The translations under genes were made by a program, and so were the position numbers. 64,000 bases of DNA from Candidatus Melainabacteria bacterium (GTDB lineage: Bacteria; Cyanobacteriota; Vampirovibrionia; Vampirovibrionales; Vampirovibrionaceae), in NCBI GenBank assembly GCA_050247195.1, contig JBFWUP010000001.1, positions 853,725 through 917,724 on the forward strand, read 5' to 3'. Under the pieces are notes generated by a model. That model saw only the letters and a list, made by a program, of their open reading frames with translations. It was not told the DNA's origin and ran no database searches. Of this stretch, positions 6,918 through 55,959 are shown piece by piece (the stretch's first letter is position 1; each line of letters begins with the position of its first letter).

Positions 6918-7052
6918 ATGAAACGTACACTGGAAGGCACTCAGCGTAAACGTCGCCGGGTCAGTGGTTTCCGTACCCGCATGCAGACAGCTGCCGGTCG
7001 CCGCGTGCTCAGCCGCCGTCGCGCCAAGGGTCGGCACAAAATAGCCCTGTAA
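6918..7052 (+). CDS. rpmH: 50S ribosomal protein L34
   Basis: 44-aa [47 protein letters not shown]. It is below the ORF-track size cut-off and was found by reading the sequence. The GAGATTGAACG region is upstream. Confidence 0.85.
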
Positions 7053-7063
7053 GCTGTTGGCCG

Positions 7064-7779: not shown

Positions 7780-7829
7780 TGGGCGGAGACTTTTTCCGTT
7801 TTTTGGTTCTCATATGGAGCGCATGACCT

Positions 7830-15317: not shown

Positions 15318-16799
15318 GTGACACTGGCCGATAAAAACCGCACCAAAATTGTGGCCACACTGGGCCCAGCCTCCACATCACCCCAGGTGATGGAAAAGTT
15401 GCTTCTGGCCGGGGTGGCCGTCTTCCGCCTCAATTTTTCCCATGGCTCTCACGAAGAGCATGCCGCCAATATCGCCAATATCCGTCAGGTTTCCGCCCGG
15501 CTGGATACCCACGTTGCCATTCTGGGTGACCTGCAGGGGCCCAAGTTTCGCACCGGCATGCTGGAGAATGACATGCCTGTTGAGCTCGAGAATGGTCAGA
15601 CGGTTCGCTTTACCGCCCAGCAGCAGATTACCGGTGTGGCCGCCGATGGCGTGACGGTGATCGGGTGTAATTATCCGCAGCTGGTGGAAGCGGTGAAACC
15701 CGGCGATACGGTGCTGATGGCCGATGGCACCATCCGGCTGACGGTGCTGAACAAGCCGGAGTCGTTGCTGGCCGAGTGCCGTGTGGTGGATGGCGGTCCG
15801 CTGGGTTCCCGCAAAGGCATTAACCTGCCGGATTCCCATATCCAGGTGCCGGCGCTGACCGAAAAAGATCTGGCCGATGCCCTGTTTGGGGTGAAAGCCG
15901 GGGTGGATTATCTCGCGCTGTCGTTTGTTCAGCAGGCTGACGATGTGGTGGCCCTGAGAAAATATGTAACGGAAGCCGGTCTGACCTGCCCGCCGATTAT
16001 CGCGAAAATTGAACGCCCGCACGCCGTGGAGCATATCCCCGAAATTCTGGAAGTCTCCGACGGCCTGATGGTGGCGCGCGGGGATCTCGGTGTGGAACTG
16101 CCGCCTGAGCGCGTGCCGATTATTCAGAAACAACTGGTGGAGATTGCCAACCACTATGGCATTCCCGTCATCATCGCCACGCAGATGCTGGAGTCCATGG
16201 TTGATTCCCTGCAACCGGCGCGCTCGGACGTGAGTGACATTGCCAATGCCGTGCTGGACCGGGCCGACGCGCTGATGCTCTCCGGTGAGACGGCGATGGG
16301 TGAGTACCCGGTGGAATGCGTGACGATGATGCGCAAGATTATTCAGGAAGTGGAGGCCAGCCATCTGGCCAAGCGCTACCGTCCGCATGAGTCCAGCGCG
16401 ATGATCTCGCCGCACGATCAGCACACCATTGCGCATGCCGCCAGTTACGCGGCGACCAAATCCAACGTCAACGCGCTGGTGGTGCTCTCCAACTCGGGCA
16501 GCATGGCCCGGCGGATTTCCAAACTGAAGCCTTACCGGGCGATGATTGCCGTGACGCCGCACCATGCCGTGGCCAACAAAATGTGCCTCCTGTGGGGCGT
16601 CACGCCGGTGGAGTCGCCCATTACCGGCAGTTCGGATGAGACGATGGAGATGGCCGAAAACCTGATTCTGGAAAAGGGCCTGCTGCAGCATGGCGATCGG
16701 ATTGTGTTCTGCGCCGGTAAAACCCCTTTAAAATGGCTGGCCGATGTTGTGAAAATCTATCGCATTGGCGACGTGGATCACACACAGGATCTGGGCTAG
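15318..16799 (+). CDS. pyk: Pyruvate kinase
   Basis: ...KTKIVATLGPAS..., FRLNFSHG and MVARGDLGVE signatures. GTG at 15318 gives a family-typical N-terminus (alternative GTG at 15264). Has a C-terminal extension beyond the canonical PK core. Confidence 0.85.
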   Translation: MTLADKNRTKIVATLGPASTSPQVMEKLLLAGVAVFRLNFSHGSHEEHAANIANIRQVSARLDTHVAILGDLQGPKFRTGMLENDMPVELENGQTVRFTAQQQITGVAADGVTVIGCNYPQLVEAVKPGDTVLMADGTIRLTVLNKPESLLAECRVVDGGPLGSRKGINLPDSHIQVPALTEKDLADALFGVKAGVDYLALSFVQQADDVVALRKYVTEAGLTCPPIIAKIERPHAVEHIPEILEVSDGLMVARGDLGVELPPERVPIIQKQLVEIANHYGIPVIIATQMLESMVDSLQPARSDVSDIANAVLDRADALMLSGETAMGEYPVECVTMMRKIIQEVEASHLAKRYRPHESSAMISPHDQHTIAHAASYAATKSNVNALVVLSNSGSMARRISKLKPYRAMIAVTPHHAVANKMCLLWGVTPVESPITGSSDETMEMAENLILEKGLLQHGDRIVFCAGKTPLKWLADVVKIYRIGDVDHTQDLG

Positions 16800-16823
16800 C
16801 AGCTGTTTCCCCGTGAGCGCTGG

Positions 16824-16868
16824 CCTCTCCCGGCCCCTTCGGGGCCACCCGCTCCTGCAAGGAGAGGG
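16824..16868. repeat. GC-rich palindromic element (REP-like, copy 2) 3' of pyk
   Basis: Inner perfect hairpin GGCCCC-TTC-GGGGCC (16832-16846) nested within CCTCTCCC ... GGAGAGGG arms. Confidence 0.5.
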
Positions 16869-16870
16869 TT

Positions 16871-17308
16871 TCAGGTATCGACTGCCTCGGCCTGGACATC
16901 CACCACGGTGCTGCCGGGTTGCATGACGGGCGGTTCGCCGTAGAGGGTGTAGGCCTCTTCCAGAATGCGCACGTTGCGCGTGTTGGCGCGCCAGAAGGCG
17001 TCGCTGACATCGCCCAGCAGGGGAATGCTGCCGATGAGGATATCAATCAGAATATTGGCGGCCAGGCGGGCGTGAACATGACCCGGAAAGCCGAGTTCAT
17101 ACGCCACCCACACCGGGTAGAGTGAAAGCAGCGCAGCAACCACCTCGCCGCCCACCGGCAGAACGCCCAGCAACGGGTCCAGGCCGATGCGTTGTTTGGT
17201 GAACGGGATTTCAATGGCCCGGTCCATCAGGCGGGCCAGCGTTTTGGCGCGGCGTATGCCGGGATGTGGGTGGTGGTCCGGGTGGGTTTCCTTCGGGAGT
17301 GGGGCCAT
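16871..17308 (-). CDS. DUF4112 family membrane protein
   Basis: ...IPFTKQRIGLDPLLGVLPVGGEV... matches the DUF4112 core. ATG at 17308 is preceded by GAGAGGA SD. The track's extension to 17371 lacks an SD. Confidence 0.6.
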   Translation of the reverse strand: MAPLPKETHPDHHPHPGIRRAKTLARLMDRAIEIPFTKQRIGLDPLLGVLPVGGEVVAALLSLYPVWVAYELGFPGHVHARLAANILIDILIGSIPLLGDVSDAFWRANTRNVRILEEAYTLYGEPPVMQPGSTVVDVQAEAVDT

Positions 17309-17401
17309 TCGGGGTCCTCTCATGGGCGGGCGCCGGGTGCAATTTTTGCATTTCAGGCGTCTTGTATTCATACTGTCCCGGTGGAACGACGGACCGCGCC
17401 G

Positions 17402-17950
17402 ATGTTTGTTCAGCCTGTCACCTCATCATACCCGCTGGGTGTTGCCCGGCAAACCCCGCCGGGTGATGTCCAGTTTGGCATGGCGGTTGGCTATGATGCC
17501 GAAGATCTGCCACCCGAGGAAGGCCCGGCCGTTCCTGTCTGGATTGATTCCGCGCGGGCGCAGACACAGGGGCATCTGCCGGTTTCGGGTGGTTATATTT
17601 ATGCCAACGGCGAGGATGCCCGGAAAATTCTGAACATCCGGCAACTGCGGGCGCAGCTCAGAGGCAGTCTGGTTCAGGCTGAAACCCCGGTCGGGATCCG
17701 GAAGCAGCCTCTAAAGGCAGAGGATGACCTGGCCTGGCTGCACCGGCTGGCGCAGGCGCCGGTTCTCGTCCCGCGGACCCTCACTCCCCGTGAGGCGGAT
17801 GTTGTGCGCGAAGTGAAACACCAGCTGGATGTGTTGGAACGCCGGGCGGTCGATCGTGCTGTTGCCATGCTCCCCGCGGAACGTCCGGACAAGAATGCCC
17901 GCCGCCGTGCCCGCCGCGCCCGCCGGAAGGTGGGAACACAGTCCCGCTGA
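17402..17950 (+). CDS. Hypothetical protein with Arg/Lys-rich C-terminal tail
   Basis: ORF after trimming the track's antisense-overlapping N-terminal extension. No domain recognised. Confidence 0.35.
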   Translation: MFVQPVTSSYPLGVARQTPPGDVQFGMAVGYDAEDLPPEEGPAVPVWIDSARAQTQGHLPVSGGYIYANGEDARKILNIRQLRAQLRGSLVQAETPVGIRKQPLKAEDDLAWLHRLAQAPVLVPRTLTPREADVVREVKHQLDVLERRAVDRAVAMLPAERPDKNARRRARRARRKVGTQSR

Positions 17951-18040
17951 ACAGCCATCCGGTGGCGGTATGATACACTCAGTGAGGTGGGTTGTTGCGC
18001 ATTGTGATTGCCCTGCCGCCGGGACAAAACGGGGGAGAGG

Positions 18041-18514
18041 ATGATGAACGGTTTTTTTTCTGTGACGATGCCTGAGACGACGCCACTCCAGTTTGCCGGC
18101 GAGCGGAGCCGCAAACGCCGTGCGGCCGGGCTGGGTTTCACGGTTTTGAGTGCGGCTGGCGTGGCGCATGGTTTGTACAATTATGGGGCGCACAGCGCAT
18201 TCGGAGATACAGGCGCTTATGTGGCGGCGGAAAGCCCTGACACCCAACGCCCTTACGGGCAGACGCAAACCCGGGCTTATCAGGAGATATTTACCGGTGT
18301 GCCTTCTCAGTCGGATGTGGATGTGCTGACGCGCTACCACGAAGACCTGGGCAAGACGGACGCCTATGCCTCGGTGAGCGCGTGGTCTGAGGATCAGCAG
18401 CCGGATACCTGGCTGAAAGTGGACGCTGCGGCAACGGGTGTGGGGGTGCTGGGCCGGCTGGGCGTTTGGCTGGGTCTGCCATGGCGCCGCCGGCGCCAAC
18501 AGAAAGCCAACTGA
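18041..18514 (+). CDS. Hypothetical membrane-anchored protein
   Basis: ATG pair at 18041/18044 directly after GGGGGAGAGG. C-terminal hydrophobic segment GVGVLGRLGVWLGLPW. Confidence 0.4.
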   Translation: MMNGFFSVTMPETTPLQFAGERSRKRRAAGLGFTVLSAAGVAHGLYNYGAHSAFGDTGAYVAAESPDTQRPYGQTQTRAYQEIFTGVPSQSDVDVLTRYHEDLGKTDAYASVSAWSEDQQPDTWLKVDAAATGVGVLGRLGVWLGLPWRRRRQQKAN

Positions 18515-18598
18515 TTCTGTCATATGCCGTGTTGCCGGGTTTCACCGGGTGCGTTTCTGCGCTTCAATAACGCCTTACTGACTGTGGGACCCCAATCA

Positions 18599-19102
18599 AT
18601 GAAAATCTGCAATCCGCCAGCGTTGTCACCCGGGTTTGCCGGCTCCCTGAAGAAAAAACCATGGCCCCATTATGCTTTTTTGGCTGGCAGCATTGTGACA
18701 ACAGGGTTTGCTGCAAGCTCTGGCTGGCATTACTTTCAATCAGGCACTCAGGAGACCAAAGTAAACGGTCTGATCGCACAGAAGGCAGAGCTACCCTTGG
18801 TCAGCCCCCGGCAGCAGGACATTCTGACGCGCTCGGGCACGGAACCCCTGCCCTTTGATGATCAGCAGTGGCTGGTAAGTTACCTCGAGGATACGGCCGG
18901 CCGGCAGCGGCACAATCTTGCGCTGGAGCCCCGGATACTGGCGGCTGAACTCGCGCTGGGGCGGGAGCAGGACGCCACACGGGAAAGCCTGAGTGATTCG
19001 GCTCACATGGCTGAAATTACTGCCATGGCGGGCTTTCTGGGCTATAAAATGCGCGCCGGTGACTGGACAATTCCAGAAGATTGGTTGAAGTCCGAAACCT
19101 AG
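18599..19102 (+). CDS. Hypothetical protein with N-terminal transmembrane segment
   Basis: ATG at 18599 (MKICNPP...). Hydrophobic stretch AFLAGSIVTTGFAASSGW. No SD. Confidence 0.35.
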   Translation: MKICNPPALSPGFAGSLKKKPWPHYAFLAGSIVTTGFAASSGWHYFQSGTQETKVNGLIAQKAELPLVSPRQQDILTRSGTEPLPFDDQQWLVSYLEDTAGRQRHNLALEPRILAAELALGREQDATRESLSDSAHMAEITAMAGFLGYKMRAGDWTIPEDWLKSET

Positions 19103-19105
19103 AGA

Positions 19106-19399
19106 CTACTGCCAGCTTTCGGCGCGGCGGGGTTTTTTCATTGCCTGGCCACGCTTGTTGGTGCGCTGCTGCAAGCGTTCAATCGCCTCGTGCGCCTCGG
19201 CCAGAAACACCTTGCCTTCGCCTTCCTCCAGGTCCTGCAGCACCAGCTCATCCCAGTCTTCGTCATCCTCGTCCCAGAGGTCTTTGTCTTCCTCGTCCCA
19301 GTCGGGCGTCTCGTTGGATCCCTCATCTTCAGTGATTGCGTCCAGAAACAAACCGTCCTGCAGGCCAGTATCCGCCTGCGAGAGAAATTCCCCGTTCAT
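19106..19399 (-). CDS. Hypothetical highly acidic small protein with basic C-terminal tail
   Basis: D/E-rich ORF (...DWDEEDKDLWDEDDEDWDEL...). AAGGAG lies 13 nt upstream of the ATG. Convergent with the three preceding genes. Confidence 0.4.
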   Translation of the reverse strand: MNGEFLSQADTGLQDGLFLDAITEDEGSNETPDWDEEDKDLWDEDDEDWDELVLQDLEEGEGKVFLAEAHEAIERLQQRTNKRGQAMKKPRRAESWQ

Positions 19400-19519
19400 T
19401 GGTCATCGTTCTCCTTGCACTCAAAAAATCGCAAAGGGGGCGGTAGGCAGCCACTCCCGCTGCGTGCAGTCAGTATCGTTCCCCCGGCAGAAAACTTGAG
19501 GCCAGGTTAAGCTTGATTG

Positions 19520-19546
19520 CCCCCTTTCCCCTTGAGGGGGATGCTC
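19520..19546. repeat. Short GC palindrome TCCCC-TTGA-GGGGA embedded in a CCCCCTTTCCCC tract (REP-like, copy 3; weaker)
   Basis: Seen in the intergenic region between the convergent 3' ends of the acidic-protein gene and the ABC ATPase gene. Confidence 0.35.
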
Positions 19547-19583
19547 AGCCGTTACGGATGAGATGTCCGAGGGGGGATGCGGG

Positions 19584-20615
19584 TTATGCTTCCAGGCCGC
19601 TCAGTTCCGCGGCGCGGTGGCACCAGGCGATATGGCCGGGCAGGTATTCCCGCGCTGCGGGGACTTCCGTGCGGCACTGCTCAACCACGTACGGGCACCG
19701 TGTATGAAAACGGCAGCCTCTGGGCGGGTTGGACGGGCTGGGCAGGTCGCCTTCAAGCAGCAGGCGTTCTTTATGCCGCTGGCTGGGGTCCGGGAGCGGT
19801 ATGGCGGACATCAGCGCCTGCGTGTAGGGGTGCAGCGGCCTGCTGTAAAGGGATGCCGCCGGGGCAAGCTCCACAATCCGCCCCAGGTACATCACGGCAA
19901 CACGGTCACTGATGTACTCCACCACGCTGAGGTTGTGGGCGATGAACAGGTAGGTCAGCCCCAGTTCGTGCTTTAAATCATCCAGCAGGTTCAGAATCTG
20001 GGCCTGAATCGAGACATCCAGCGCGCTGACGGGTTCATCGGCCACAATGAATTTGGGGTTGAGCGCCAGAGCCCGGGCAATGCCCACCCGCTGGCGCTGC
20101 CCGCCGGAAAACTCGTGCGGATAGCGCTGGGCGGCGTCCTTTGGCAGGCCAACCCGGTCCAGCAGCTCGGCCACCCGGGCCGTCAGGGCAGTCCCCTTCA
20201 GTATACGGTGCACCTGCAGGGGTTCGGCAATGGCGTCCCCAATGCTCATGCGGGGGTTCAGGCTGGCGTAGGGATTCTGAAAAACAATCTGCATATGGCG
20301 CCGCAGGGGGCGCAGGGCGCCGGGGCTCAGGTGGGTCAGTTCGGCGCCTTCCAGGTACACCTGGCCTTGCGACGGGGGGATGAGCTGGAGAATGCAACGG
20401 CCCAGGGTGGACTTGCCGCAGCCGCTTTCACCCACCACGCCCAGGGTCTCTCCGGCCAGAATATCCAGTGAGACATCCGTGACGGCCTGCACCTGACCGA
20501 CCTGGCGGCTGAAAAACCCCTTGCGGATGGGAAAATCCTTGCTCAGATGTTCAATGCGCACCAGCGGCGTGGTGTCGCTTGACTGTGGTGTGGTTTGGCT
20601 GGGGACAGTGCTCAC
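19584..20615 (-). CDS. Oligopeptide/dipeptide-type ABC transporter ATP-binding protein (OppF/DppF family)
   Basis: Walker [13 protein letters not shown] signature LSGGQRQR and Walker B. C-terminal oligopeptide-family extension with CRFHTRCPY motif. Confidence 0.8.
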
Positions 20616-44981: not shown

Positions 44982-47570
44982 CTATTGTACCGAAAAGACA
45001 AGGGTCCGCACCGACAGCGGTGGGAATGTGAACGCGAGGACACCCTCCCTGCCGGAAATGGCGGCATCGGGGAGGGGTTCTCCCAGGGCATTGGTCGGCA
45101 GGGCGTTCTGCAGTTGCAGGCTTGTGGAGAGTGTGACGGGTACAGTCTGGTCAGTGGTATTGATCAGTCGCAGGATAATCTGGTTGTTTTCCCGGTACAA
45201 AGCGCTCATGATCACTTCCGGGGCATCCCAGGAAAAAACGCTGTGCCCGGCGGGTGTCTCGCTGGTGGGTGAGGCAGGCAGGTAGGCTGTGGGGGAGACC
45301 GTGAAACAGTCGCCGTAAAAGTGATCGGCTTCCGTGTAAAGCCGGTGGGTTTCTTCCGGCTGGGGCAGCCAGGCATAGCGGGCTTCCATGGGTGATTCGG
45401 GATACTGGGCTTCGGGCGTGGGCAGTGGGGGGCCGGCCTGCGCGCCGCGCACCCCGGTTTCATTGCTGGAGAGCAGCCCGAACGCGCGCATCAGCGTGAT
45501 GTGGAAGTCCGCGCCCATTACTTCATATTCACACAGGCCTTCGGTAATCCACGCCTGATCGTTGGCGGCTGCAAAGCGCTGAACCGGGCCTGTGCTGGTT
45601 TTCAGTTCTTTCCACGGCGCCACCGGCATGGCCTCGGCCATCCGGTAATCCGGGTTGTAAGTGCGTGTCACCGTGCCGAAATGGCCTTCGGCCAGCACAC
45701 AGGTCATGGGTCCTTTGGTCGGGAAGACCACCTGAAGCGTATGGCCGGGGTCGTGGTTAATCCAGCGGCTGTGGGCGGTGATTCGGGGGCTGCCGGCAGT
45801 CACGGTCAGTGTGGTGTGCAGCAGGTGGTGGCCCGTGGCCTTGCCGGTGCGCGAGTAGGTGAGTTCAACTTCGGCCACCAGGGGACCGGTCTGTGTCAGC
45901 CGGGCGTCACACAACCGGTATGCTGTGGGGTGGCTGCCGGGCACCGGCGCACGATTGTAGGAGTCTCCCTGATCGGGATAATCCAGAATGCGGTGGGTGT
46001 GTTCATAACGCAGGTTACGCCGGCAGTCCGTCAAAGTAACCGTTCCACCGGTGGCGGCGTTTTTTCCGGTGGGCAGATGGATTTCAGCAGCCACCAGACC
46101 ATTTTCAAGGCGGATGGTTTTCTGCCGGACCGTACCCGACTGGATGGACACCACAGGCTGCGATACAGGCTTTCGAGACGATGAGAGCGGCGCTGCCGAT
46201 AAGGGCGGTACGTTCTCCACCCACACCCAGCCGTTGCGAACAGTGGTGGTGCGGTGGGCAAGCGGAACAATCTGGTGGCTGGTGCGATCGTGCCGGATTA
46301 AAGTGGTTTCAGTTGCACCGGTCTGATCGAAATCAGCGGCGTTGTCGTCGCCATAAAACTGTACAGGAACAGCACCGGTAAAAGGCATACTGCCCGTATT
46401 GACGAGGACAGGCTCTCCCGTGGCGGCCGTGAGACGGTGCAGCGCACGATGCTGCAGGCCGGCGGCGATGTCCCGGATTTCATCGTAGCGGGCCATATTG
46501 GCCCGGTGAACGGAATCCACGCTGCAGCCGCAGATGCTGTCGTGCGGGGTGTTCAGCAGCAGCAGCTCCCAGGCCGTTTCCAGCGCCATCACTTCGGCGT
46601 CATTTTCAGGCGGGCTGATGACCATGAGAGGTTCAATCACACGCGTCAGTTGGTGCTCCAGCTGGCGCTGCGCCTGTTTAAGCGGTATGCGCGCACTGTA
46701 TACGCCCGGCAGCAGAAACTGGGCGCTGCAGTCGGTGAGTTCTCCGGGAACGGTTTCCAGTGTGCCGGTGGGTTGCTGCTGCCAGTGGGTCTGCATGGCC
46801 TGCATAAAACGATCCGGGGTGGTGGTTTGCATGCCGGGCAGCCAGGCCGCCAGGCTGGTAAGCGCGTCGGGAGTGAGGGGCCCGAGGTGGTCTCCGCCCA
46901 GGGGTAGCAGAAAACCCGGCTGACCCGCCGGGGTGGCGGCGACCAGCTTATCGCGCAGGGCGTCCAGCGCGCGCCGGCGCGCGTCGTCCTCAGACAAATC
47001 GGGATCCTGAAAAGGCCACTGGAAATAGCCCTCGCTCAGGTGCGCGGTGAGGACACGGCTGCCGTCGGGGCTCTGCCACCAGAACATGTTCTGCCCGGGG
47101 TTTACCCCGCGCCAGACGATGGCTGAGCGGATGCCGCACATATTCAACATCAGCGGCATGTGAGCGCTGTGGCCAAAGGTATCCGGCAGATACCCCGTGA
47201 AGTCATGACAGCCCCAGCTGCGGGCGGTGCGGATTCCCCGGATCAGATTCCGCAGTAGCGCTTCGCCGCTGATCAGCAGTTCATCCGGCATCACAAACCA
47301 GGGGCCGATGGTGAGTCTGCCCTGCTGAACCGCCCCGAGCAGACGATCCGTCTGATCGGGCCGCAGGGCCAGATAGTCAGACAGCAGCACCGTCTGGCCG
47401 TCCAGGGCAAAGCAGTCCATCTGCCCGGCATCCAGCCGTTCGAGAATGGCGTCAATCACCTCAGCCAGACGCAACTGGTAGGTCCGGAAGGGTTCATACC
47501 ATTCCCGGTCCCAGTGGGTGTGAAAAAACACCCATGGGGTTGGTTTCAGTGCCACGGCAGTGTCGCTCAT
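44982..47570 (-). CDS. Glycoside hydrolase family 38 alpha-mannosidase (mannosylglycerate-hydrolase-like)
   Basis: N-terminal ...HTHWDREWY... GH38 catalytic motif and the remaining 862-aa architecture. Confidence 0.8.
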   Translation of the reverse strand: MSDTAVALKPTPWVFFHTHWDREWYEPFRTYQLRLAEVIDAILERLDAGQMDCFALDGQTVLLSDYLALRPDQTDRLLGAVQQGRLTIGPWFVMPDELLISGEALLRNLIRGIRTARSWGCHDFTGYLPDTFGHSAHMPLMLNMCGIRSAIVWRGVNPGQNMFWWQSPDGSRVLTAHLSEGYFQWPFQDPDLSEDDARRRALDALRDKLVAATPAGQPGFLLPLGGDHLGPLTPDALTSLAAWLPGMQTTTPDRFMQAMQTHWQQQPTGTLETVPGELTDCSAQFLLPGVYSARIPLKQAQRQLEHQLTRVIEPLMVISPPENDAEVMALETAWELLLLNTPHDSICGCSVDSVHRANMARYDEIRDIAAGLQHRALHRLTAATGEPVLVNTGSMPFTGAVPVQFYGDDNAADFDQTGATETTLIRHDRTSHQIVPLAHRTTTVRNGWVWVENVPPLSAAPLSSSRKPVSQPVVSIQSGTVRQKTIRLENGLVAAEIHLPTGKNAATGGTVTLTDCRRNLRYEHTHRILDYPDQGDSYNRAPVPGSHPTAYRLCDARLTQTGPLVAEVELTYSRTGKATGHHLLHTTLTVTAGSPRITAHSRWINHDPGHTLQVVFPTKGPMTCVLAEGHFGTVTRTYNPDYRMAEAMPVAPWKELKTSTGPVQRFAAANDQAWITEGLCEYEVMGADFHITLMRAFGLLSSNETGVRGAQAGPPLPTPEAQYPESPMEARYAWLPQPEETHRLYTEADHFYGDCFTVSPTAYLPASPTSETPAGHSVFSWDAPEVIMSALYRENNQIILRLINTTDQTVPVTLSTSLQLQNALPTNALGEPLPDAAISGREGVLAFTFPPLSVRTLVFSVQ

Positions 47571-47633: not shown

Positions 47634-48473
47634 TTACTGGATCAACCGCAGGGCTTCTTCCAGCAGGTTTTTGTTGGTGGAAATCAGTTTTGAGGTGAAA
47701 TCCATCTGCAGCTTGGCCTGCTGCAGTAGCGCCACGCTGCCGCGGATATCCACGTTGGATTTTTCCAGCAGGCCTTCCCGGATTTCACCTGTGCCGGCCA
47801 CCGGCTCGCCGGAGAGGGCTGTGGTCTGGAACATCTGATCTTCTGTTTCCGCAAGGCCACCGGGGTTCACAAAGTTGACGAGAGCCACTTTGTACAGCGG
47901 GGTGACCACACGGCCCTGTTCGGCAATGCCCACGAGGGTGCCGTCGGAACGGGTTTTGAATTCATCATACTTGCCCAGGAACTTGCCGTTGGCGGGGTCC
48001 ACCCACAGGTTAATGCCCACGGTGGGGGTGTGTCCCGGTCCGCCCTGGCTGTGGCTGGGGTTATTGGCCGTGCCGCCCGGGTTGGTGGCGCCGCCCGTAC
48101 TCACCGGATTGCCGTCATCGCCCAGCATGTAGCCCTGCAGGGCATAACCCTTGCTGTTGACCAGATTGCCTTCAGCATTGAAGCGAAAGTCGCCCAGGCG
48201 GGTGAAGAAAAGCCCGCCATCGGGCTTGCGCACGGCAAACATGCCGTTGCCCTCAATAAACATGTTGGTGGGCGCGGTGCCGGGTATGGCTTTGCCCTGT
48301 TCCGTACTGCGCGGGGTCTCACTCAGCCGCACGCCGTTCACATAATCCGAGAACGTGGAGGTGACCTCCCGGTAGCCCGGTGTGTACATATTGGAGAGAT
48401 TCTGGCTCAGGGTGCCAATCCAGCCCTGGGCGGCCTTCTGGGAGTTCAGCGCTGTAATGAAGGGGTCAAACAT
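47634..48473 (-). CDS. Flagellar hook/basal-body rod family protein (FlgE/FlgF/FlgG-like, short)
   Basis: Conserved rod/hook N-terminus (...MYTPGYRE...) and C-terminus (...SNVDI...LLQQAKLQMDFTSKLISTNKNLLEEALRL). Confidence 0.6.
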   Translation of the reverse strand: MFDPFITALNSQKAAQGWIGTLSQNLSNMYTPGYREVTSTFSDYVNGVRLSETPRSTEQGKAIPGTAPTNMFIEGNGMFAVRKPDGGLFFTRLGDFRFNAEGNLVNSKGYALQGYMLGDDGNPVSTGGATNPGGTANNPSHSQGGPGHTPTVGINLWVDPANGKFLGKYDEFKTRSDGTLVGIAEQGRVVTPLYKVALVNFVNPGGLAETEDQMFQTTALSGEPVAGTGEIREGLLEKSNVDIRGSVALLQQAKLQMDFTSKLISTNKNLLEEALRLIQ

Positions 48474-48515
48474 GCCGGGTTACTCCTGGTTGCGCCAAAC
48501 ACGGCGTTGGCGTCG

Positions 48516-49295
48516 TTATTCCAAATCCCACGGTGATGACTGCTGACGACGGGGATGGCCGTCCTGTTCCGGTGACTGATCCTGGTATTCCAGCGTGCCG
48601 ACAGGCAGATTGCGGGCAATCATGCGCTGGCGCAGGTCATCCAGTTGCTGCTTGATGTAGAAGGCGCCGGCGCGGTCGGCTGAGACGAAGCTGGCGGACA
48701 CCTGCCCGTTGACGATGCGCAGAATCAGCGAAGAGTCCTTGTCCATATCGATACGGATGGCCTGTCCGGTTTTATAGCCTTTTTCAATCAGGCGGGTCAT
48801 ATTGTCGGAGAGCGTGTACCCGCCGAAATCCAGCTGGCCGCTGCCCGTGGTTTTAAATACGGTGTCCAGCGGTACGCTGCCCATCACAATGGGCAGGGCG
48901 GGTATCACAACCTGCTTCAGGTAACTCAGGTCATCGGGGCCCAGCTGGTGCATCAGCAGGGTGAGATCCTGCGGGGAGAGATCCTGATCATCGGCGCCCG
49001 TCCTGCGTTGAACCGGGCCAGGATTATCGGCGTCAGTCACCGCCGGCTGAACGACCGGCGCGGGGGTGGTTTCTCTCTGCGCGTTTGCAGCCGGTTTCTC
49101 GGCGGCAGGGGGTTCGGCCGTGCGGCTGGTGGCGCCGGGCTGGGGAAGACCGGCTTCCTGGACGCTGCCCAGTAAATCCAGAAACGCCAGATCCAGTGCG
49201 TCCAGGCCACTCTGGGCCGTGCTGCCCTGGACACGCTGCACGCGTCCGCCGTATTGCAGGGCATAGGCTTTCAGTTGGGCGTTCTGAATGTCCAT
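48516..49295 (-). CDS. fliK: Flagellar hook-length control protein FliK-like
   Basis: C-terminal region (...SLILRIVNGQVSASFVSADRAGAFYIKQQLDDLRQRM...NLPVGTLEYQDQ) fits the FliK C-terminal (Flg_hook) pattern. Pro/Ala-rich central linker. Position between fliJ and the hook-like gene. Confidence 0.5.
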   Translation of the reverse strand: MDIQNAQLKAYALQYGGRVQRVQGSTAQSGLDALDLAFLDLLGSVQEAGLPQPGATSRTAEPPAAEKPAANAQRETTPAPVVQPAVTDADNPGPVQRRTGADDQDLSPQDLTLLMHQLGPDDLSYLKQVVIPALPIVMGSVPLDTVFKTTGSGQLDFGGYTLSDNMTRLIEKGYKTGQAIRIDMDKDSSLILRIVNGQVSASFVSADRAGAFYIKQQLDDLRQRMIARNLPVGTLEYQDQSPEQDGHPRRQQSSPWDLE

Positions 49296-49329
49296 TCCGG
49301 GTTCCTTCTGTCGTACCTGACGGAAAAGA

Positions 49330-49815
49330 TTATTCCAGGGAGTTGAGCAGGTTATTCAGGTCTTCTGTCTCTTCATCCAGGGCCGCCTGCTGTGCCCTGA
49401 AAAAGCGCTGGGAGGCCACTTCATCCAGTTGCTTCATCTCAATGCGCTTCTGTTCTTCCTGCCATTCTTCGAGGGCTTTATCCTTGTGTTTCAGCAGGGC
49501 TTCCACGTCGGCCTGGGCTTTCTGTAACATCTGTTGTTCGTAGGCCAGTTGCTGTTTGGCGGCGTCCAGGTCCTGGTAGAGCTTATCCAGCTCCTGGTTC
49601 AGCACGTACAGGTACTCGTCGTGGCTGGCCATCATGGTGTGCGGGGATTTCAGCATATGGTCGCGGACGCTGCGGATCTCATCTTTTTTCTGCTGGATCG
49701 CTTGTTCCACCTCGCGGACATGGCGTCTTGCCTGGATCACCCGCTGTTCCTGCTCTTTTTTCTTACGCTCGCGCAGTTCAAAAACCTGTTGCAGTCGGTA
49801 TTGAAAAGCGGCCAT
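49330..49815 (-). CDS. fliJ: Flagellar export protein FliJ-like coiled-coil protein
   Basis: About 160-aa all-coiled-coil protein, MAAFQYRLQQVFELRERK... like FliJ. Adjacent to fliK. Confidence 0.5.
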   Translation of the reverse strand: MAAFQYRLQQVFELRERKKKEQEQRVIQARRHVREVEQAIQQKKDEIRSVRDHMLKSPHTMMASHDEYLYVLNQELDKLYQDLDAAKQQLAYEQQMLQKAQADVEALLKHKDKALEEWQEEQKRIEMKQLDEVASQRFFRAQQAALDEETEDLNNLLNSLE

Positions 49816-50011: not shown

Positions 50012-51475
50012 TCAGTGGTCAGTGAGGTCACTGTCCAGCATGGCGGGCGCCAGAATGGCATCCTGCATGCCGTGAATGATTTTTTTGTCGGCCGGACAGG
50101 CCGTGGCCAGGATGCCGCCCAGTTTCACCGCGTCTGCGCTGACCAGGTAATACGGGCAGAGGCGTGTGCGGACGCGCAGTTCCTGCTGCCTCCCAGTGTC
50201 CGGGTTCAGGCTGCGGATGGTTTGTACGGCTGTGTTTTCAAAGGGCTGCAGCACATACGGTGTGCTGGGAAAGGCCTTCAGCGCGGTGTCAATGGCATCA
50301 GCCCAGTCTCCCTGGGCCATATCATGCCCAATGGCCACCCCCCGGCTGCCCCAGGCCAGCGGGGAAAAACCGGAGGGCTTGATAACCAGCCGACGTCCTT
50401 TTTGCCCCAGGGTTTTCAGCGCCTCAAAACTTTGTATGGCGTTGCCCTCCGGGTTCAGGCCGGGGATCACGCCGGCGCCGGACAGGGGGGTGGGATCCAT
50501 AACCCAGGTGGGTGGGACGAGGCGCTTCAGCCAGTCAAAATCTTCGCCAAGCCGGCCCTGCCAGAAGGCTGCCAGCATGGGGTGATGCAGCAGCGCAAGG
50601 TTGAGTTTTTCCTCATGCACGGGCTTGTACGGGGGCGTGAGGGCAACCCAGCCTTTTTTCACGGCAAACTGTATCAGCTCCGCATTGGGAATGTTGGGCA
50701 GGTCAAAGAGTTCGAAAAACCGGTAGATTAAATCGATGGTCTGCGTGGTCCCTTCCGGCGTCCGCCACACGAGGGCTTCGCCCTGCAGCTGGAGTTCCCG
50801 AGGATGAACCACGGCGATACCGGGGTATTCTGCCTGAACGGCCTGGGTAAACCAGCGCCACTCGGGGCGGTAATCGCCCGCTTCGTCGGAAATCACCACA
50901 GCGATAAACGGTTGTCCGGTACGGGACTGTTTCTGGGCGGCATACCAGTTCAGCAGGCTGTCCAGCCACAGCCGGGGCAGGGGGTGAGGGCCTTCCAGCA
51001 CCGCAAACCCGCTTTCGCGGTAGGTGTGGTTGAGCATGGCCGTGAATCCCAGACCACCGGGTACGCTGTCAATTTCCGTCAGGGCGAAACCCGACTCGGT
51101 GATCAGCAGATCCGGCCGGAGGAGCATTGGCATGACGGGTTTTAAGCGTTTCATGGCGGCAAACTGCCGCAGGGCTTCCGGCTTACCGGCATCCAGCCAG
51201 GCGCTCACCCAGTCCGGCGCCCTGCCGGCCAGGCTATCTCGGTACAGGGTTTCCACCCCGCTGATAAACTGAACGAGCACGCCACCCAGGCGGTTCAGCG
51301 TCTGATGCTGGGTTCTGCTCAGGGTAAAGGGCTGTGCGGCCAGCACCCAGCCGGGCTGACCATTCTCTGCAGCGCCATACAGCGCCTGGTTTGGCAGCAG
51401 GGCCGGGTTCAGCGTCAGGCCGGTGGATCCGGCAGAAATGGGCGGGGTCGGGCAGGTCATCGTGCCCGGCATCAT
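50012..51475 (-). CDS. Circularly permuted ATP-grasp / glutathionylspermidine-synthase-like protein
   Basis: Start at MMPGTM (ATG 51475). The track's Arg-rich 185-aa N-terminal extension looks non-coding. Family assignment by overall resemblance only. Confidence 0.45.
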   Translation of the reverse strand: MMPGTMTCPTPPISAGSTGLTLNPALLPNQALYGAAENGQPGWVLAAQPFTLSRTQHQTLNRLGGVLVQFISGVETLYRDSLAGRAPDWVSAWLDAGKPEALRQFAAMKRLKPVMPMLLRPDLLITESGFALTEIDSVPGGLGFTAMLNHTYRESGFAVLEGPHPLPRLWLDSLLNWYAAQKQSRTGQPFIAVVISDEAGDYRPEWRWFTQAVQAEYPGIAVVHPRELQLQGEALVWRTPEGTTQTIDLIYRFFELFDLPNIPNAELIQFAVKKGWVALTPPYKPVHEEKLNLALLHHPMLAAFWQGRLGEDFDWLKRLVPPTWVMDPTPLSGAGVIPGLNPEGNAIQSFEALKTLGQKGRRLVIKPSGFSPLAWGSRGVAIGHDMAQGDWADAIDTALKAFPSTPYVLQPFENTAVQTIRSLNPDTGRQQELRVRTRLCPYYLVSADAVKLGGILATACPADKKIIHGMQDAILAPAMLDSDLTDH

Positions 51476-51631
51476 ACGGCAGAGACAACCGTCTGACCAG
51501 CGGGGCCGCCTGCTGCGGCGAGCGCTTCTCCTCCGGATGGACGGCATCGGGTGCCGGGCTGATGCTTTCAGACCTGCCGTTTTGCTATAATTGATCCGCA
51601 GCAGATCGGCGAAATCAGGGAAAAGACGGGC

Positions 51632-53512
51632 ATGTTCGGTCAGTCCAAAAACAAAGACAACGACCCTTCGGGCTCTCAGGGCATGGCTCCCGGTGGATCC
51701 CGCAGTCTGTTTGCCTCGGAGCTGAATATTGCGGCTGCCCCGGTTCGTTTCGGATTTGAACGGCAGGCGGCGGGTGCGCCGGCTTCCGTTGCGGACCCGT
51801 TGCCCGTTACAACGCCGGATGAAGAAGATTATCTGCCGGAGACCCTGCCTTACCTGCCGGATGATTTCAGCCCGACCGAAGCGGCAGAGCCCCGGTGGCA
51901 GGAAGACATGAATGCAGCGGGTTACGGCGATCTGCTGCAGGAAACCGCCGTTCAGTTTCCGCAGGAAGCGGCGCCTGAGGATGACCTGGAAGCATTGTTC
52001 TCGCCCACGGCCGAACCCCTGCCGCCGCACCTTAAAATGGCGCCCACCGTCTCAGAGCCGACGGTTCCGGATGTTCCACTCAGCCAGACAGTTACGCCGT
52101 ATGAGGTGGAAGACGCCCTGCACGAGGAAAACGGGGAAGAGGACTGGGGGCTGACAGGGGCGCAACCCATATCCCATCTGCCGCCCATGGCATCGCCGGT
52201 GGCCGAGCTGGAACTGATGCCGCCGCCTGCCGAGGATTTTCCGGCGGCGCTTTCCCCCGCGCCTGTTCAGCCGGTGCTGCAGCCGGATCCGGTCAGGGAA
52301 TCCGCCCCAGCCGAGCCTGTGAGTGACCCCTTTGCAGTGGATGCCGCCGGGGCATGGGAGGAAGATTTTTCAGCCGGTGATGCCGGTGATGCGTTTGGCG
52401 CGTTGCTGGAGACGGGCGCGCACAGCGATGGTCTGTCGGATTTTCTGAACGCGCCCGGTGCTGACGATACGTTTGCCACCGCCGCGTTTTCTGCTGCGGA
52501 TGAGGGTGTGTACTCCCTGCGCGACGACTTTGGCGTTGAGGACGATGACACGTTTGCACCCACGGGGGGTGCAGCCGCCGGGCCTTTTCAGACCAATGCT
52601 CAGACCAGTGCCGTGGGTGAAGGCGGCGGCGCTTTTCTCGACGGGGTGGAATCGGCGTATTACCCGGATGATTTCTCCCTGCTGAATGAGGATGTTCTGG
52701 CCGAAACCGAGACGGCGCTGGATGAAGCCGCCACGCTGCTGCTGCCGGATAACGAAGCCTTTGGCTTTGAAGAAACAACCCCTGAGATCTCATCGCCTGG
52801 CCTGTCGGTGGAAATGGCCGGGCTGCTGCCGGCGCCCGAGGAAGTGATTCCTGAGGTGATGCCGCCCCCGCCGGCGCCACTGGAGAATGACGCCGATGAT
52901 TTTGATTTTTATGAGCCGCTGGAGCCGGATGACTCCCTGCTGATTGATGTGACGAATCAGTCTGAGGACGACGTACCGCGCGCGCCGGGTTTTGATGACC
53001 TGGGCTGGGGAACTCCCGACCCGGCAGTTGACCCGTTTACCCCCACAGGCGCTGCGGCAGACATACCGAACGCTTTGTCTGAACTGTCTGAAGCGCCTGC
53101 CGCCCGGCCTGCCAGTCAGCCTGCGGTGCCGCCGCCCATGCCTCAACCGTCGGCAGCCGGTTTTGCCGGCCTGAGTGCTGACCTGTGCGCCGACCCGGAA
53201 CAGCTGCGGGTATTAAACGTGTGTGAACTGAGCCATGATAAACGGCTGCTTCTGGTGGAGACGGCCACGGACGCCGCCGGCCCGCCCCGTTTTGCCCTGA
53301 TGGCCCAATCCGGCGCCATGAGCAATCCCGAGATCGCCGTGCTCAAGATATTCGATCAGTCCCCCCTGATGCCTTCCGGCACTGAATTTAGCGCCATGCG
53401 CGAAGGGACGGCGGGCGACAAGGACATGTACATCACCCGTGTGGGCTCCTGGCAGGGCATCATCAGCAGTGATGAGGATGCCGTCATCCTGCATGCCGAA
53501 CTGAGCCGCTAG
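51632..53512 (+). CDS. Extremely acidic, Pro/Ala/Asp/Glu-rich low-complexity protein (626 aa) with about 110-aa C-terminal globular domain
   Basis: Continuous ORF with RBS-like GGGAAAAGACGGGC before the ATG. The C-terminal domain (...RLLLVETATDAAGPPRFALMAQSGAMSNPEIAVLKIFDQ...) is of unknown family. Confidence 0.55.
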   Translation: MFGQSKNKDNDPSGSQGMAPGGSRSLFASELNIAAAPVRFGFERQAAGAPASVADPLPVTTPDEEDYLPETLPYLPDDFSPTEAAEPRWQEDMNAAGYGDLLQETAVQFPQEAAPEDDLEALFSPTAEPLPPHLKMAPTVSEPTVPDVPLSQTVTPYEVEDALHEENGEEDWGLTGAQPISHLPPMASPVAELELMPPPAEDFPAALSPAPVQPVLQPDPVRESAPAEPVSDPFAVDAAGAWEEDFSAGDAGDAFGALLETGAHSDGLSDFLNAPGADDTFATAAFSAADEGVYSLRDDFGVEDDDTFAPTGGAAAGPFQTNAQTSAVGEGGGAFLDGVESAYYPDDFSLLNEDVLAETETALDEAATLLLPDNEAFGFEETTPEISSPGLSVEMAGLLPAPEEVIPEVMPPPPAPLENDADDFDFYEPLEPDDSLLIDVTNQSEDDVPRAPGFDDLGWGTPDPAVDPFTPTGAAADIPNALSELSEAPAARPASQPAVPPPMPQPSAAGFAGLSADLCADPEQLRVLNVCELSHDKRLLLVETATDAAGPPRFALMAQSGAMSNPEIAVLKIFDQSPLMPSGTEFSAMREGTAGDKDMYITRVGSWQGIISSDEDAVILHAELSR

Positions 53513-53548
53513 CCCGACGCCGGCGCTGTCTTGTGGTAAAGTGGTCCG

Positions 53549-54082
53549 ATGACCAGCAAGGATCATTTGTCGCTTGTGAACCCGGCGGAAAACCCCGCCA
53601 GGACCCTCGCCGGACATCTGACAGAACCCGCTTCCCCGCCGCGTTCGCTGGCGCAGTTTATTCAGCAGCGCCGGGAAGCCCGTGACCTGACGCAGCGTCA
53701 GCTTGCAGCCAGAACCCACCTGAGCGTGGAACAGATCCACGACATTGAAACCGGTATTGAACCGTTTCTGTCGCCTCTGGTGCGCTCGCGTCTGGCGCGT
53801 GTGCTGCGCGTAAAATCCTCGGAGATTCAGGCTTTTGAAGTGGTGCCGGCGCTCTCCGAATGGTCCGGCGACCCGTCGGAAGGAACACTGGCGACCCGCC
53901 GCCGTTGGGCGGCCAACCTGCTGGCGGCCATGGCGCGCGATCCCGGCGCGCTTCAGTCGTGCCCTTTGTGTCAGAGTCCGCTTTCCGTGCAGCAGTATGA
54001 ACGGCGCGATCTCAACAACGAGGTTCTGGATGTGCTGAAAGCGCACTGCACCCAGTGCCTCTTTCGTTTCACGTCGGACTGA
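53549..54082 (+). CDS. XRE-family HTH transcriptional regulator with C-terminal zinc-ribbon
   Basis: Cro/C1-type HTH (...LAQFIQQRREARDLTQRQLAARTHLSVEQIHDIETG...). Paired Cys-x-x-Cys motifs are CPLCQ...CTQC. Confidence 0.65.
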   Translation: MTSKDHLSLVNPAENPARTLAGHLTEPASPPRSLAQFIQQRREARDLTQRQLAARTHLSVEQIHDIETGIEPFLSPLVRSRLARVLRVKSSEIQAFEVVPALSEWSGDPSEGTLATRRRWAANLLAAMARDPGALQSCPLCQSPLSVQQYERRDLNNEVLDVLKAHCTQCLFRFTSD

Positions 54083-54098: not shown

Positions 54099-54698
54099 TC
54101 AGCTGCCGAAAATCTGAATGATGTTTTTCATAAACCCGGCGGTCCAGGCGATAAACACGCCAAACATCAGGAAAGGCATGACCAGGACCGAGAGGGTTTG
54201 CTCCACATTCAGCGCGTAGGTGCGCGCCACGGCCATGCCAAACAAAATGGCGGACCAGGCCCACAGGCCCATGCTCAGGCAGATGCCGAGAAAACTGCCG
54301 GTGGCCCCCAGACTGTTTTCAATCAGCAGGGCAGGCGCCAGTAAAATCCACGGCAGGGTGGCCAGGCTGGAGAGCAGGAGAAACGGCTTGAAGCGGCCGT
54401 GGCCGCGGAAAGCAAACGCCATCAGGGCAATCACGGAAGCCATCAGCACCCAGCCCAGCAAACCAAGGAACCCATGCAACGGCATAATCAGCAGCAGGTT
54501 GTCATCCGTGGCGCCGCTCTGCATGGTATGCAGCGGCGGGGCGATGGCGGAAATCAGGAAGACAAGGATGAGGCCGTAAAGCAGATTGCGACCGGGCTCT
54601 TCCGTTTCAGCCATTTTTTCATAGGTGGTTTGCGGGTGGAACAGGCCATTGTAGACCAGTGTCAGAAAGCCATTCATCGCTGCTACTCCAGAATCCAC
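54099..54698 (-). CDS. Yip1-domain integral membrane protein
   Basis: Five transmembrane helices with Yip1-like topology. Start possibly ATG 54677. Confidence 0.5.
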   Translation of the reverse strand: MDSGVAAMNGFLTLVYNGLFHPQTTYEKMAETEEPGRNLLYGLILVFLISAIAPPLHTMQSGATDDNLLLIMPLHGFLGLLGWVLMASVIALMAFAFRGHGRFKPFLLLSSLATLPWILLAPALLIENSLGATGSFLGICLSMGLWAWSAILFGMAVARTYALNVEQTLSVLVMPFLMFGVFIAWTAGFMKNIIQIFGS

Positions 54699-55777
54699 AG
54701 CGGCTGGTTGGGATAGCGCACACTGAAGGGCAGCATGCCGCCCAGAACTTCGGCGCTCGCCATATCAGCGCCGCTGGCGCTGCGTGGCGCCGGCAGGTGC
54801 TGCATCAGGGTGGGCAGTCCCAGCATTTCCAGCAGGGTGGCGTGCTCTTCAAAAGGCACCAGTGGCAGCTGTTTGTCGCCGGAGAGGTGATGACGCTCTT
54901 TCGCCATTTTATTGGTCAGCTCGTATGCGGCTTTCAGATCGCCCAGTTCATCGGCCAGGCCGGCTGCAATGGCCTGACGGCCGCTGACAACCCGGCCATC
55001 GGCAATGGCCTTGATTTTGGCCGTGAGCGCCGCTTTCTTGACGGGGTCTTTGACAAAGCGGGTGCGGCCTTCAAGCACTGTGCTGAGAAAATCAGCATAG
55101 CTGTCGTCAATAATGCCCTGGATCAGCTTCTTGTCGTCCTCGGTGGGTTGGCGGTAGGGTGAGAGAATGTCCTTAAACTTGCCGCTTTTAATGGTGACCG
55201 GCTGCAGACCCAGTTTGTCCTCAAACAGGCGCTGCATGTTAATGGTGCTGATGATGACACCGATAGAGGCGGTCAGGGTGCCTGGGTTGGTGACAATTTT
55301 GTCGGCCGCGCAGGCGGTGTAGTAACCCCCGCTGGCGGCGGTATCGCCAAAGCTGGCCACCACCGGCTTTTTAAGGCTGACACGTCTGACGGCCGCATTC
55401 AGTTCCTGGCTCATACCCACCGTACCGCCCGGTGAGTTGACGCGCAGCAGTACGGCTTTGACCCTGGGTTCTTTTTCCGCCTTGTTCAGGGCTTTCAGGG
55501 CTTTCATGGCGTTGGTGTCGGAATCAAACAGGCCGCTGGAATCGCCCGGGGCGTCCATGGTGATAGGGCCGGAGAGATCGACCAGCATGATCTGGTCGCC
55601 TTTTTTTTCAAACAGGGAAGAGACCGAGCCGTCGAGTTCTTCGGCGTTGCTGGGCGGCGGCGCTTTGGTGCGCACCGCGTTAAATACACCCAGGCCCAGC
55701 GCCAGCAGACACACCACGAGAATGGACAGAGCCACTTTATTGGGGGAATTCAGAAAATCGTTGTCCTCAACGCTCAC
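54683..55777 (-). CDS. sppA: Signal peptide peptidase SppA (36K type)
   Basis: ClpP/crotonase fold with Ser-Lys dyad region (...GDTAASGGYY...). GTG at 55777 is preceded by a strong AAGGAGG 7 nt upstream. The track's extension to 55885 has no SD. Confidence 0.8.
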   Translation of the reverse strand: MSVEDNDFLNSPNKVALSILVVCLLALGLGVFNAVRTKAPPPSNAEELDGSVSSLFEKKGDQIMLVDLSGPITMDAPGDSSGLFDSDTNAMKALKALNKAEKEPRVKAVLLRVNSPGGTVGMSQELNAAVRRVSLKKPVVASFGDTAASGGYYTACAADKIVTNPGTLTASIGVIISTINMQRLFEDKLGLQPVTIKSGKFKDILSPYRQPTEDDKKLIQGIIDDSYADFLSTVLEGRTRFVKDPVKKAALTAKIKAIADGRVVSGRQAIAAGLADELGDLKAAYELTNKMAKERHHLSGDKQLPLVPFEEHATLLEMLGLPTLMQHLPAPRSASGADMASAEVLGGMLPFSVRYPNQPLWILE

Positions 55778-55959
55778 GGGGATGCCTCCTTTGCCCGGCC
55801 CGGGCAGAACCTGCACCGTATCATTGTAGCGTATGTTTGCCACTTGCTGGCTTGGGCAGCATCTAAAAAAACCGAGTATAGACACCTATACAAGACAAAA
55901 ATCAAACGATACCCTGATGACATCAAATGAATTTTCGATATGTGATCAGGAGAACAGAG

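Follow-up and report, generated by a model that had tools for sequence, protein, structure and literature searches.

What kind of protein is encoded by a long, strongly acidic gene with no evident relatives, and does the small regulator gene behind it tell us anything about its role? This question is raised by a locus of a Candidatus Melainabacteria bacterium (Vampirovibrionales, Vampirovibrionaceae; assembly GCA_050247195.1), of which a stretch of 64,000 nucleotides was analysed (contig JBFWUP010000001.1, forward-strand positions 853,725 to 917,724), called the window below. In the window, a 626-aa open reading frame (ORF) for a hyper-acidic protein, the acidic protein, is followed by a 177-aa ORF for a protein with an XRE-type helix-turn-helix (HTH) and two C-x-x-C pairs, the HTH protein. 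A preliminary description made from the letters of the DNA had singled out this pair and proposed a regulatory or structural role. Both ORFs were found where it had placed them, and the gap of 36 bp between them was confirmed. The acidic/HTH pair is a real and uncharacterised system that occurs only in Vampirovibrio-type bacteria.

The acidic protein is rich in alanine (14.4%), proline (12.3%), aspartate (9.6%) and glutamate (9.3%), with 18.8% Asp+Glu against 3.2% Lys+Arg, a pI of 4.05 and a net charge of about −98. Counted in five blocks of 100, the acid residues are evenly distributed through the first 500 residues. The highest Kyte-Doolittle mean of any 19-mer is 0.78, below the level of a membrane helix, and no signal peptide, membrane helix or anti-sigma motif was found in the 626 residues, which leaves the anti-sigma or surface-protein reading considered in the preliminary description without support. 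AlphaFold2, run on the whole protein as a single sequence, gave a pLDDT below 50 for 442 of 626 residues, essentially residues 1-520. This model contained low-confidence helices at 248-299, 328-343 and 353-368 and a beta domain at 525-612. Composition and model confidence thus agree with the picture first drawn, that of a hyper-acidic, mostly disordered protein with a small ordered C-terminal domain. That the acidic ORF is a genuine gene follows from its codon-position GC (0.72/0.49/0.66, resembling that of the neighbouring genes), which is of the coding type, and from the presence of homologues at 20 other loci. A search for tandem DNA repeats in the acidic gene of the window returned trivial ones only. 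Pfam and NCBIfam scans of the window protein gave no match, and an identical protein is recorded as a hypothetical protein in a Candidatus Melainabacteria metagenome-assembled genome (GCA_050182425.1, contig JBFXCH010000001.1).

To define the family, residues 496-626 were searched exhaustively with HMMER against 1.84 billion cluster representatives. The search gave 58 matches at E ≤ 1e-3, 36 of them at E ≤ 1e-10; two of the 58 were unrelated repeat proteins and were discarded as spurious, and about 55 related clusters make up the family. A word-indexed homologue search retrieved only the protein itself when the whole sequence was used, and nothing, not even itself, with the tail alone. Every member with a named source comes from Vampirovibrionales, and the matching domain lies at the extreme C-terminus in all of them. 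Fragments excepted, the proteins are 480 to 1221 aa long, with 13-22% Asp+Glu and 1-4% Lys+Arg in nearly all members (8% in the most divergent, P0060) and net charges of −36 to −190 for those of full length. No member has a convincing membrane helix: the 19-residue Kyte-Doolittle mean stays below 1.6 in all of them but one, and the segment concerned (1.99) is not conserved.

Alignments between loci by tblastn cover the last ~100 residues only, the disordered part not being alignable by BLAST. Two short motifs nevertheless recur within it. The N-terminal one (SLFASELNIAAAPVRFGF in the window) has the consensus S-[LV]-F-A-P-x-L-N-x5-6-I-D-F-G-F, is usually preceded by MFFKKNKP and was found in 34 of 53 members, that is, in most of those with an intact N-terminus, the most divergent ones included. 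The mid-chain motif (FLDGVESAYYPDDF...ALDEAATLLLPD) has the consensus G-x-F-L-D-x-V-x-x-x-L-Y-P-x-D-P-F ... A-F-E-E-A-A-x-x-L-F-P-E-T, occurs in 35 of 53 members and overlaps with two low-confidence helices, 328-343 and 353-368, in the model of the whole protein. The window copy lacks a third motif, DFYAT.FTLNE.GELVP, that is widespread among family members. While the length of the chain varies about 2.5-fold, its charge, the short motifs and the terminal domain are conserved, a pattern that would be expected of a functional disordered scaffold or spacer. In one pair of loci that are 99.3% identical, L003 and L005, an indel close to the 5' end of the acidic gene breaks the frame in L005 (locus positions ~5300-8000), where the gene is called as 652 aa, compared with 883 aa in L003; the difference reflects either a mistake in the assembly or genuine variation of the disordered region.

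The ordered C-terminal part comprises residues 521-626, in line with the ~110 residues estimated before. Modelled alone (residues 516-626, single-sequence AlphaFold2), the tail reached a pLDDT of 73.4 and a pTM of 0.68 and showed eight strands, at residues 525-532, 537-544, 553-560 and 567-574 in the first half, followed by four more; the full-length model, too, predicts strands in both halves. Across the family, G605 is invariant and F586 and W607 are present in at least 90% of the sequences. The second half ends with ...LHAELSR in the window copy and with ...LHTELG in the family, the extreme C-terminus being variable (ELG, ELS, ELTA, EID, EM). A 29-sequence alignment of the domain, A4, gave the pattern L.ILG.C.L...KRLLLV......FALMGQ.G......VLK.F..NP.......F.A..E......MY.VQVG.W..IIS......LHTELG.

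The sole Pfam family matched repeatedly across these 29 members was FliO (PF04347), which was found in 20 of the 29 tails at E < 1 and in seven at E < 1e-3, the best value being 2e-7. The Pfam gathering score of 22 bits was reached by three sequences (P0056, whole protein, 24.0 bits; P0007, tail, 22.5 bits; P0009, tail, 23.0 bits), in which positions ~20-79 of the 91 in the profile were covered. As a control, reversed tails gave FliO matches in 0 of 5 cases, against 4 of 5 for matching forward tails. The window copy itself did not match the FliO model, either as whole protein or as tail alone; it has a ten-residue insertion, TATDAAGPPR, in the second hairpin. Its tail matches the homologue P0007 with an E-value of 2.4e-17 (HMMER). 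The relationship of the window copy to FliO is therefore one by transitivity, because it matches the clear homologues and not the FliO model. In an hhalign comparison, columns 4-54 of A4 aligned with residues 46-93 of Escherichia coli FliO, just after its membrane helix, with a pairwise E-value of 0.008 and a low probability, as expected for a single-sequence template.

No similarity to FliO was seen in the second half. An internal duplication of the two four-strand halves was considered and is unsupported (hhalign E 0.19). A sequence-profile search of the PDB with the tail yielded nothing better than E 0.2, and Foldseek with the structural model nothing at E ≤ 1e-3. The preliminary description had assigned the domain to no recognised family. 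This is correct only in part, as the first half is a FliO-type sheet in most homologues. We describe the acidic protein as a putative carrier of a FliO-type sheet and not as a FliO, because it lacks the membrane helix and a fliP neighbourhood.

Over the HTH segment of the HTH protein (Table 1), Pfam gave HTH_31 at 2.2e-10 (41.1 bits, cut-off 27), HTH_3 at 1e-7 (32.4 bits, cut-off 23) and also HTH_25, and the two C-x-x-C pairs, CPLC and CTQC, lie 26 residues apart; both features had been correctly read from the sequence. The four cysteines (C138, C141, C167 and C170) and an ERRDL motif are invariant in five homologues, and the C-terminus is a predicted zinc ribbon with two conserved CxxC knuckles. 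The nearest solved relatives among PDB profiles were 9xz9 ('quorum sensing controller protein QseC') and phage 434 Cro (7e-5). NCBI names the protein 'multiprotein-bridging factor 1 family'; its score with the NCBIfam aMBF1 model is 18.8 bits versus a cut-off of 110. Homologues share 40-44% identity, and all those recovered directly follow a large acidic gene. At its N-terminus, the window protein exceeds its homologues by about 28 residues (177 versus 148-159 aa; positions 53549-53640, plus strand); the actual start codon may be one further downstream, or the extra residues may be peculiar to the lineage. An assignment to an anti-phage defence system was rejected, PADLOC having returned only a generic HTH.

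The acidic and HTH genes were then compared across loci. A scan of a genome collection returned ten loci, nine of them labelled Vampirovibrionales, Vampirovibrionaceae, Vampirovibrio or Candidatus Melainabacteria, the type strain Vampirovibrio chlorellavorus NCIMB 11383 among them, and the tenth a colinear contig labelled Coleofasciculaceae. Seven further loci came from a metagenome scan and from two look-ups that targeted divergent members. The HTH/zinc-ribbon gene stands directly after the acidic gene on the same strand in 20 of 20 loci, so that the pairing first noticed in the window is conserved, and the spacing is often tight (5 bp in L003, 10 bp in L006, 3 bp in L019, a 17-bp overlap in L020). 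Upstream, in all 13 loci with visible upstream sequence, the acidic gene is preceded by a divergently oriented gene for a 482-aa protein, called X482 here. This arrangement is kept in at least four different settings: that of the window, that of L003 (MutS downstream), that of V. chlorellavorus, where the flagellar block has moved away, and that of L019-L021. The conserved unit consists of X482, the acidic gene and the HTH gene, and this three-gene module is best read as restricted to Vampirovibrionales, relatives of cyanobacteria that do not photosynthesise. The contig labelled 'Coleofasciculaceae cyanobacterium' (L011, DATNPJ010000034.1) runs colinear with the Vampirovibrionales loci for 20 kb, with protein identities of 41-78%, sharing GH38, FlgE-like, FliJ, X482, the acidic gene, HTH, Yip1, SppA, ComM, MnmG and Mfd; it is probably mis-binned or mislabelled.

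In the window, the 170 bp of DNA between X482 and the acidic gene, positions 51461-51631, carry the extended −10-like promoter element TGCTATAAT. With one mismatch permitted, a TATAAT-containing 9-mer was present in 9 of 10 divergent intergenic regions; by eye, TATAAT could be seen in all ten printed intergenic sequences, 40-90 nt 5' of the acidic start codon. The promoter scan did not list TGCTATAAT, because a good −35 is missing. The leader holds no known RNA element or riboswitch, and no terminator was found between the acidic and HTH genes.

Further out, the surroundings differ between loci. In the window, as in six further distinct loci of its type, X482 has flagellar genes as its neighbours; they form a block of FliJ, a 259-aa protein with only a weak FliK (Flg_hook) match and a short 279-aa protein of the FlgE/F/G type, beside a gene that resembles GH38 alpha-mannosidases. 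This four-gene flagellar/GH38 block has moved beyond mnmG in three Vampirovibrio loci (L014, positions 16576-20274, L015 and L018), and flagellar genes are absent around L019, L020 and L021, the most divergent loci with sequenced flanks, where the neighbours are RNase E/G and a radical SAM enzyme (L020) or Obg, an M23 peptidase and type IV pilus genes (L021). Since two sets of fliPQR, fliJ and flgE are listed for V. chlorellavorus (Soo et al. 2015, PMC4451040), this block could be part of a second flagellar or type III set that has diverged. The position beside flagellar and ATP-grasp genes, on which the preliminary description had built, is thus upheld for X482 and not for the flagellar genes; their adjacency in the window is a matter of lineage synteny and not a defining link. 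The Yip1-domain and SppA genes downstream of the module are likewise syntenic neighbours outside the conserved unit, as they do not follow it in L003, L016, L019, L021 and L026. Yip1, SppA, ComM, MnmG and Mfd are also colinear across loci, and regional gene order is strongly conserved within the order.

Table 1. Positions of the acidic/HTH pair, its parts and its neighbours in the window
Feature	Position	Strand	Remark
Acidic ORF, 626 aa	51632-53512	+	hyper-acidic, mostly disordered protein
N-terminal short motif SLFASELNIAAAPVRFGF, aa 25-42	51704..51757	+	family-conserved
Mid-protein motif FLDGVESAYYPDDF...ALDEAATLLLPD, aa 335-373	52634..52750	+	family-conserved
C-terminal beta domain, first half, aa 521-578	53192..53365	+	FliO-like four-strand sheet
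C-terminal beta domain, second half, aa 579-626	53366..53509	+	four more strands
HTH ORF, 177 aa	53549-54082	+	36-bp gap after acidic ORF
HTH, aa 34-94	53648-53830	+	XRE-type
CPLC, aa 138-141	53960-53971	+	zinc ribbon (predicted)
CTQC, aa 167-170	54047-54058	+	zinc ribbon (predicted)
Extended −10-like promoter element TGCTATAAT	51583..51591	+	consensus match only
X482, 482 aa	50012..51460	-	divergent from acidic gene; weakly like circularly permuted ATP-grasp
FliJ, FliK-like, FlgE/G-like and GH38 block	47634-49815 and 44982-47570	-	flagellar neighbours in window
Yip1-domain and SppA (peptidase S49) genes	54099-55885	-	follow module in most loci

The reading that we favour, while holding it to be somewhat short of probable, is that the acidic protein is a polyanionic scaffold paired with a co-translated HTH regulator. 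The acidic protein would then be a soluble polyanion located in the cytoplasm, with a disordered chain of ~400-1100 residues that carries the N-terminal motif, the mid-chain helical motif and the two-sheet beta domain, the first sheet of which would be homologous to the cytoplasmic beta-sheet of FliO. The acidic and HTH proteins would be made from one transcript, often with translational coupling, and would most likely form a complex. Such a partner or regulatory relation fits because the pairing is conserved, with gaps of few bp or overlap; translationally coupled neighbour genes often encode complex-forming proteins. The folded tail or the motifs of the acidic protein would hold the XRE/zinc-ribbon regulator, and the chain would serve as a spacer, as a DNA-like competitor or as a platform for partners of the two short motifs. 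The pair might control its own promoter and the divergent X482 promoter, and an XRE regulator beside a divergent gene often does control the shared intergenic region. The resemblance of the HTH domain to DNA-binding Cro/XRE proteins and the finding that all recovered HTH/zinc-ribbon homologues lie in the module are in support of this proposal. What the analysis shows is the anatomy of both proteins, the family with its narrow taxonomic range, the likeness of the first sheet to FliO and the conserved order of the genes; we infer that the two proteins interact physically, that they act in regulation, that the acidic protein resides in the cytoplasm and that there is any link to X482 chemistry. 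Four observations weigh against a regulatory partnership. Since regional gene order is strongly conserved, the adjacency may partly be plain inheritance. Simple charge attraction between the HTH protein and the polyanion is not evident, the HTH proteins having pI values of 5.9-9.0 and not being strongly basic. The divergent intergenic regions were searched for a common palindrome or operator, and none was seen. Finally, the FliO-type domain points towards a type III export gate rather than towards transcription.

This last point leads to an alternative that we regard as unlikely, in which the acidic protein, as a soluble paralogue of FliO, would act at the export gate of the flagellum or of another type III system. 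The sheet would serve as a bridging domain, docked on the gate (FliP/FlhB/FlhA) at its cytoplasmic face, and the acidic chain would recruit or exclude export factors. The Pfam FliO matches in the homologues and the FliJ, FliK-like and FlgE/G-like genes that the module abuts in the window are compatible with such a role, as is the observation that a membrane-less Salmonella fragment with four predicted strands, FliO43-125, can on overexpression make up for a fliO deletion; its authors suggested a bridging function for it (Barker et al. 2010, PMC2947984). Helix-less and non-flagellar FliO homologues have been reported as well (PMC12403147), and V. chlorellavorus has a fliPQR-flhBA set without an adjacent fliO (PMC4451040, Table S3). 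The same table, however, already lists a fliO adjoining fliP and a singleton fliO in this organism, and the acidic protein is therefore not its sole FliO-like gene. No match to FliM, N, O, P, Q or R was found in the flanks of the ten most varied loci; the flagellar block stands apart from the module in V. chlorellavorus and is absent around L019-L021; the conserved upstream element is of the sigma-70 −10 type and not of the flagellar sigma-28 type; and the window copy does not reach any FliO score.

The layout of the acidic protein also recalls bacterial polar organisers. In PopZ and HubP/FimV, an acidic, proline-rich disordered chain is flanked by small interaction modules; HubP and FimV have a LysM domain and a membrane helix and are linked to polar flagella, and PopZ is small with a helical C-terminus. 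By analogy, the acidic protein might be a polar hub or a condensate-forming organiser with the HTH protein as a client, the N-terminal motif binding clients and the acidic proline-rich linker and a self-associating C-terminal domain gathering partners at one site. We consider this distinctly improbable. The protein does have a motif near its N-terminus, a disordered chain that is acidic and rich in Pro and Ala, and a folded C-terminal domain, and V. chlorellavorus bears a single polar flagellum (PMC4451040). The likeness is nevertheless architectural only: neither in sequence nor in fold does the protein resemble PopZ, HubP or FimV, and the structural model is a single-sequence one with a pLDDT of 73, for which Foldseek found nothing at E ≤ 1e-3.

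X482 itself suggests another possibility, namely that the acidic protein is a substrate or product-binding partner of X482 as an ATP-dependent carboxylate-amine ligase, with its Asp/Glu side chains or its C-terminus being modified. Precedents exist, RimK modifying ribosomal protein S6 and tubulin glutamylases modifying acidic tails. The divergent adjacency of the two genes, kept in 13 of 13 loci through several rearrangements, is in favour of such a relation. X482 orthologues are 44-54% identical across loci, with a mean column identity of 68% over ten orthologues, and show almost no detectable family membership. The Pfam model CP_ATPgrasp_2 matched one of the ten, weakly (E 1e-3, 18.5 bits versus a cut-off of 32), and the VxKPSG...G motif was aligned by hhalign with the equivalent segment of E. 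coli YgiC, the only segment to align, at E 0.19. These values are not significant, and no match to X482 was found among PDB sequences. Of the "ATP-grasp" gene named in the preliminary description, the conserved neighbour thus remains, and the enzymatic assignment is weak. The C-terminus of the acidic protein is not strictly conserved, which argues against a C-terminal tag site, and a tagging site for the ligase in its varying last residues was rejected. Taken together, X482 represents what looks like an enzyme-sized uncharacterised family tied to the module, which may be an ATP-grasp ligase, and modification of the acidic protein by it has a slim chance of being right.

These readings, from the regulatory partnership to the FliO paralogue, the hub and the X482 substrate, are not mutually exclusive. 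To one combination of them we give a chance that is slimmer still: a checkpoint of the FlgM kind, in which the acidic protein would hold the regulator in the cytoplasm and dock by its FliO-type sheet on a type III gate, and the state of assembly, or secretion, would free the regulator. The gate would be that of the flagellum or of the second Vampirovibrio fliPQR set, and the released regulator would switch transcription, including that of X482. That the acidic ORF is open by chance, or owes its existence to the composition of GC-rich DNA, and encodes no functional protein has next to no probability, for although the sequence is GC-rich (63%), long antisense ORFs overlap the gene, the product is mostly of low complexity and BLAST finds no similarity to homologues before the last ~100 residues, this is refuted by the coding-type codon-position GC, by an open frame kept across 480-1221 codons in ~55 divergent clusters, by the conserved start context MFFKKNKP, short motifs and C-terminal domain, and by the conserved position of the gene between the same two genes.

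We thus return to the scaffold-and-regulator reading as the preferred one. No Pfam or NCBIfam model covers the acidic family, and its members are hypothetical proteins in public records. What appears to be new is that a FliO-type sheet lacking its anchor is joined to a second sheet and to a giant acidic disordered chain, in partnership with an HTH gene. Among the core parts of the flagellar export machine, FliO is, to our knowledge, the one least understood; the natural separation of its sheet from the membrane anchor could help to reveal what this sheet binds. The family also offers a clear bacterial case of a long disordered protein that conserves its bulk properties and short motifs but not its length. 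Among the hosts is V. chlorellavorus, a predator of algae whose cell biology is little studied; the practical weight of the finding is modest, the family being confined to one order.

In comparison with known systems, the closest likeness is to FliO, whose core is composed of a single transmembrane helix together with a small antiparallel beta-sheet on the cytoplasmic side and which is easily missed at default thresholds (Andrianova et al. 2025, PMC12403147). With this conserved sheet the terminal domain aligns over its first ~58 residues, and in the window the acidic gene is only a few kb away from genes of flagellar export. In contrast to FliO, the acidic protein is without the transmembrane helix that defines the core, the sheet being preceded by acidic, proline-rich sequence; it is 5-10 times longer through its polyanionic disordered chain and has a second four-strand sheet that is not found in FliO. 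Its gene does not stand beside fliP and is always paired with the HTH gene. Departures from the canonical form have been described: FliO homologues without the membrane helix are rare and occur in Thermotogota and Acidobacteriota, others are found in non-flagellar operons of Chlamydiia and some Rhizobiales, and extra parts comprise LysM, AMIN, loops and helices (PMC12403147). These variants are, like the acidic protein, helix-less, extended by domains or unstructured loops, or non-flagellar, but neither a giant acidic disordered extension nor an HTH partner is described for them, and the text and available supplements of that study contain no mention of Cyanobacteria or Vampirovibrio.

The HTH protein, for its part, resembles regulators of the MqsA and MBF1 types, which likewise combine a four-cysteine zinc ribbon with an XRE-type HTH. 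In regulators of the MqsA type, the zinc ribbon precedes the HTH and a toxin partner is present. In the module described here, the toxin partner is missing and the order of the domains is reversed, with the HTH first and the zinc ribbon last.

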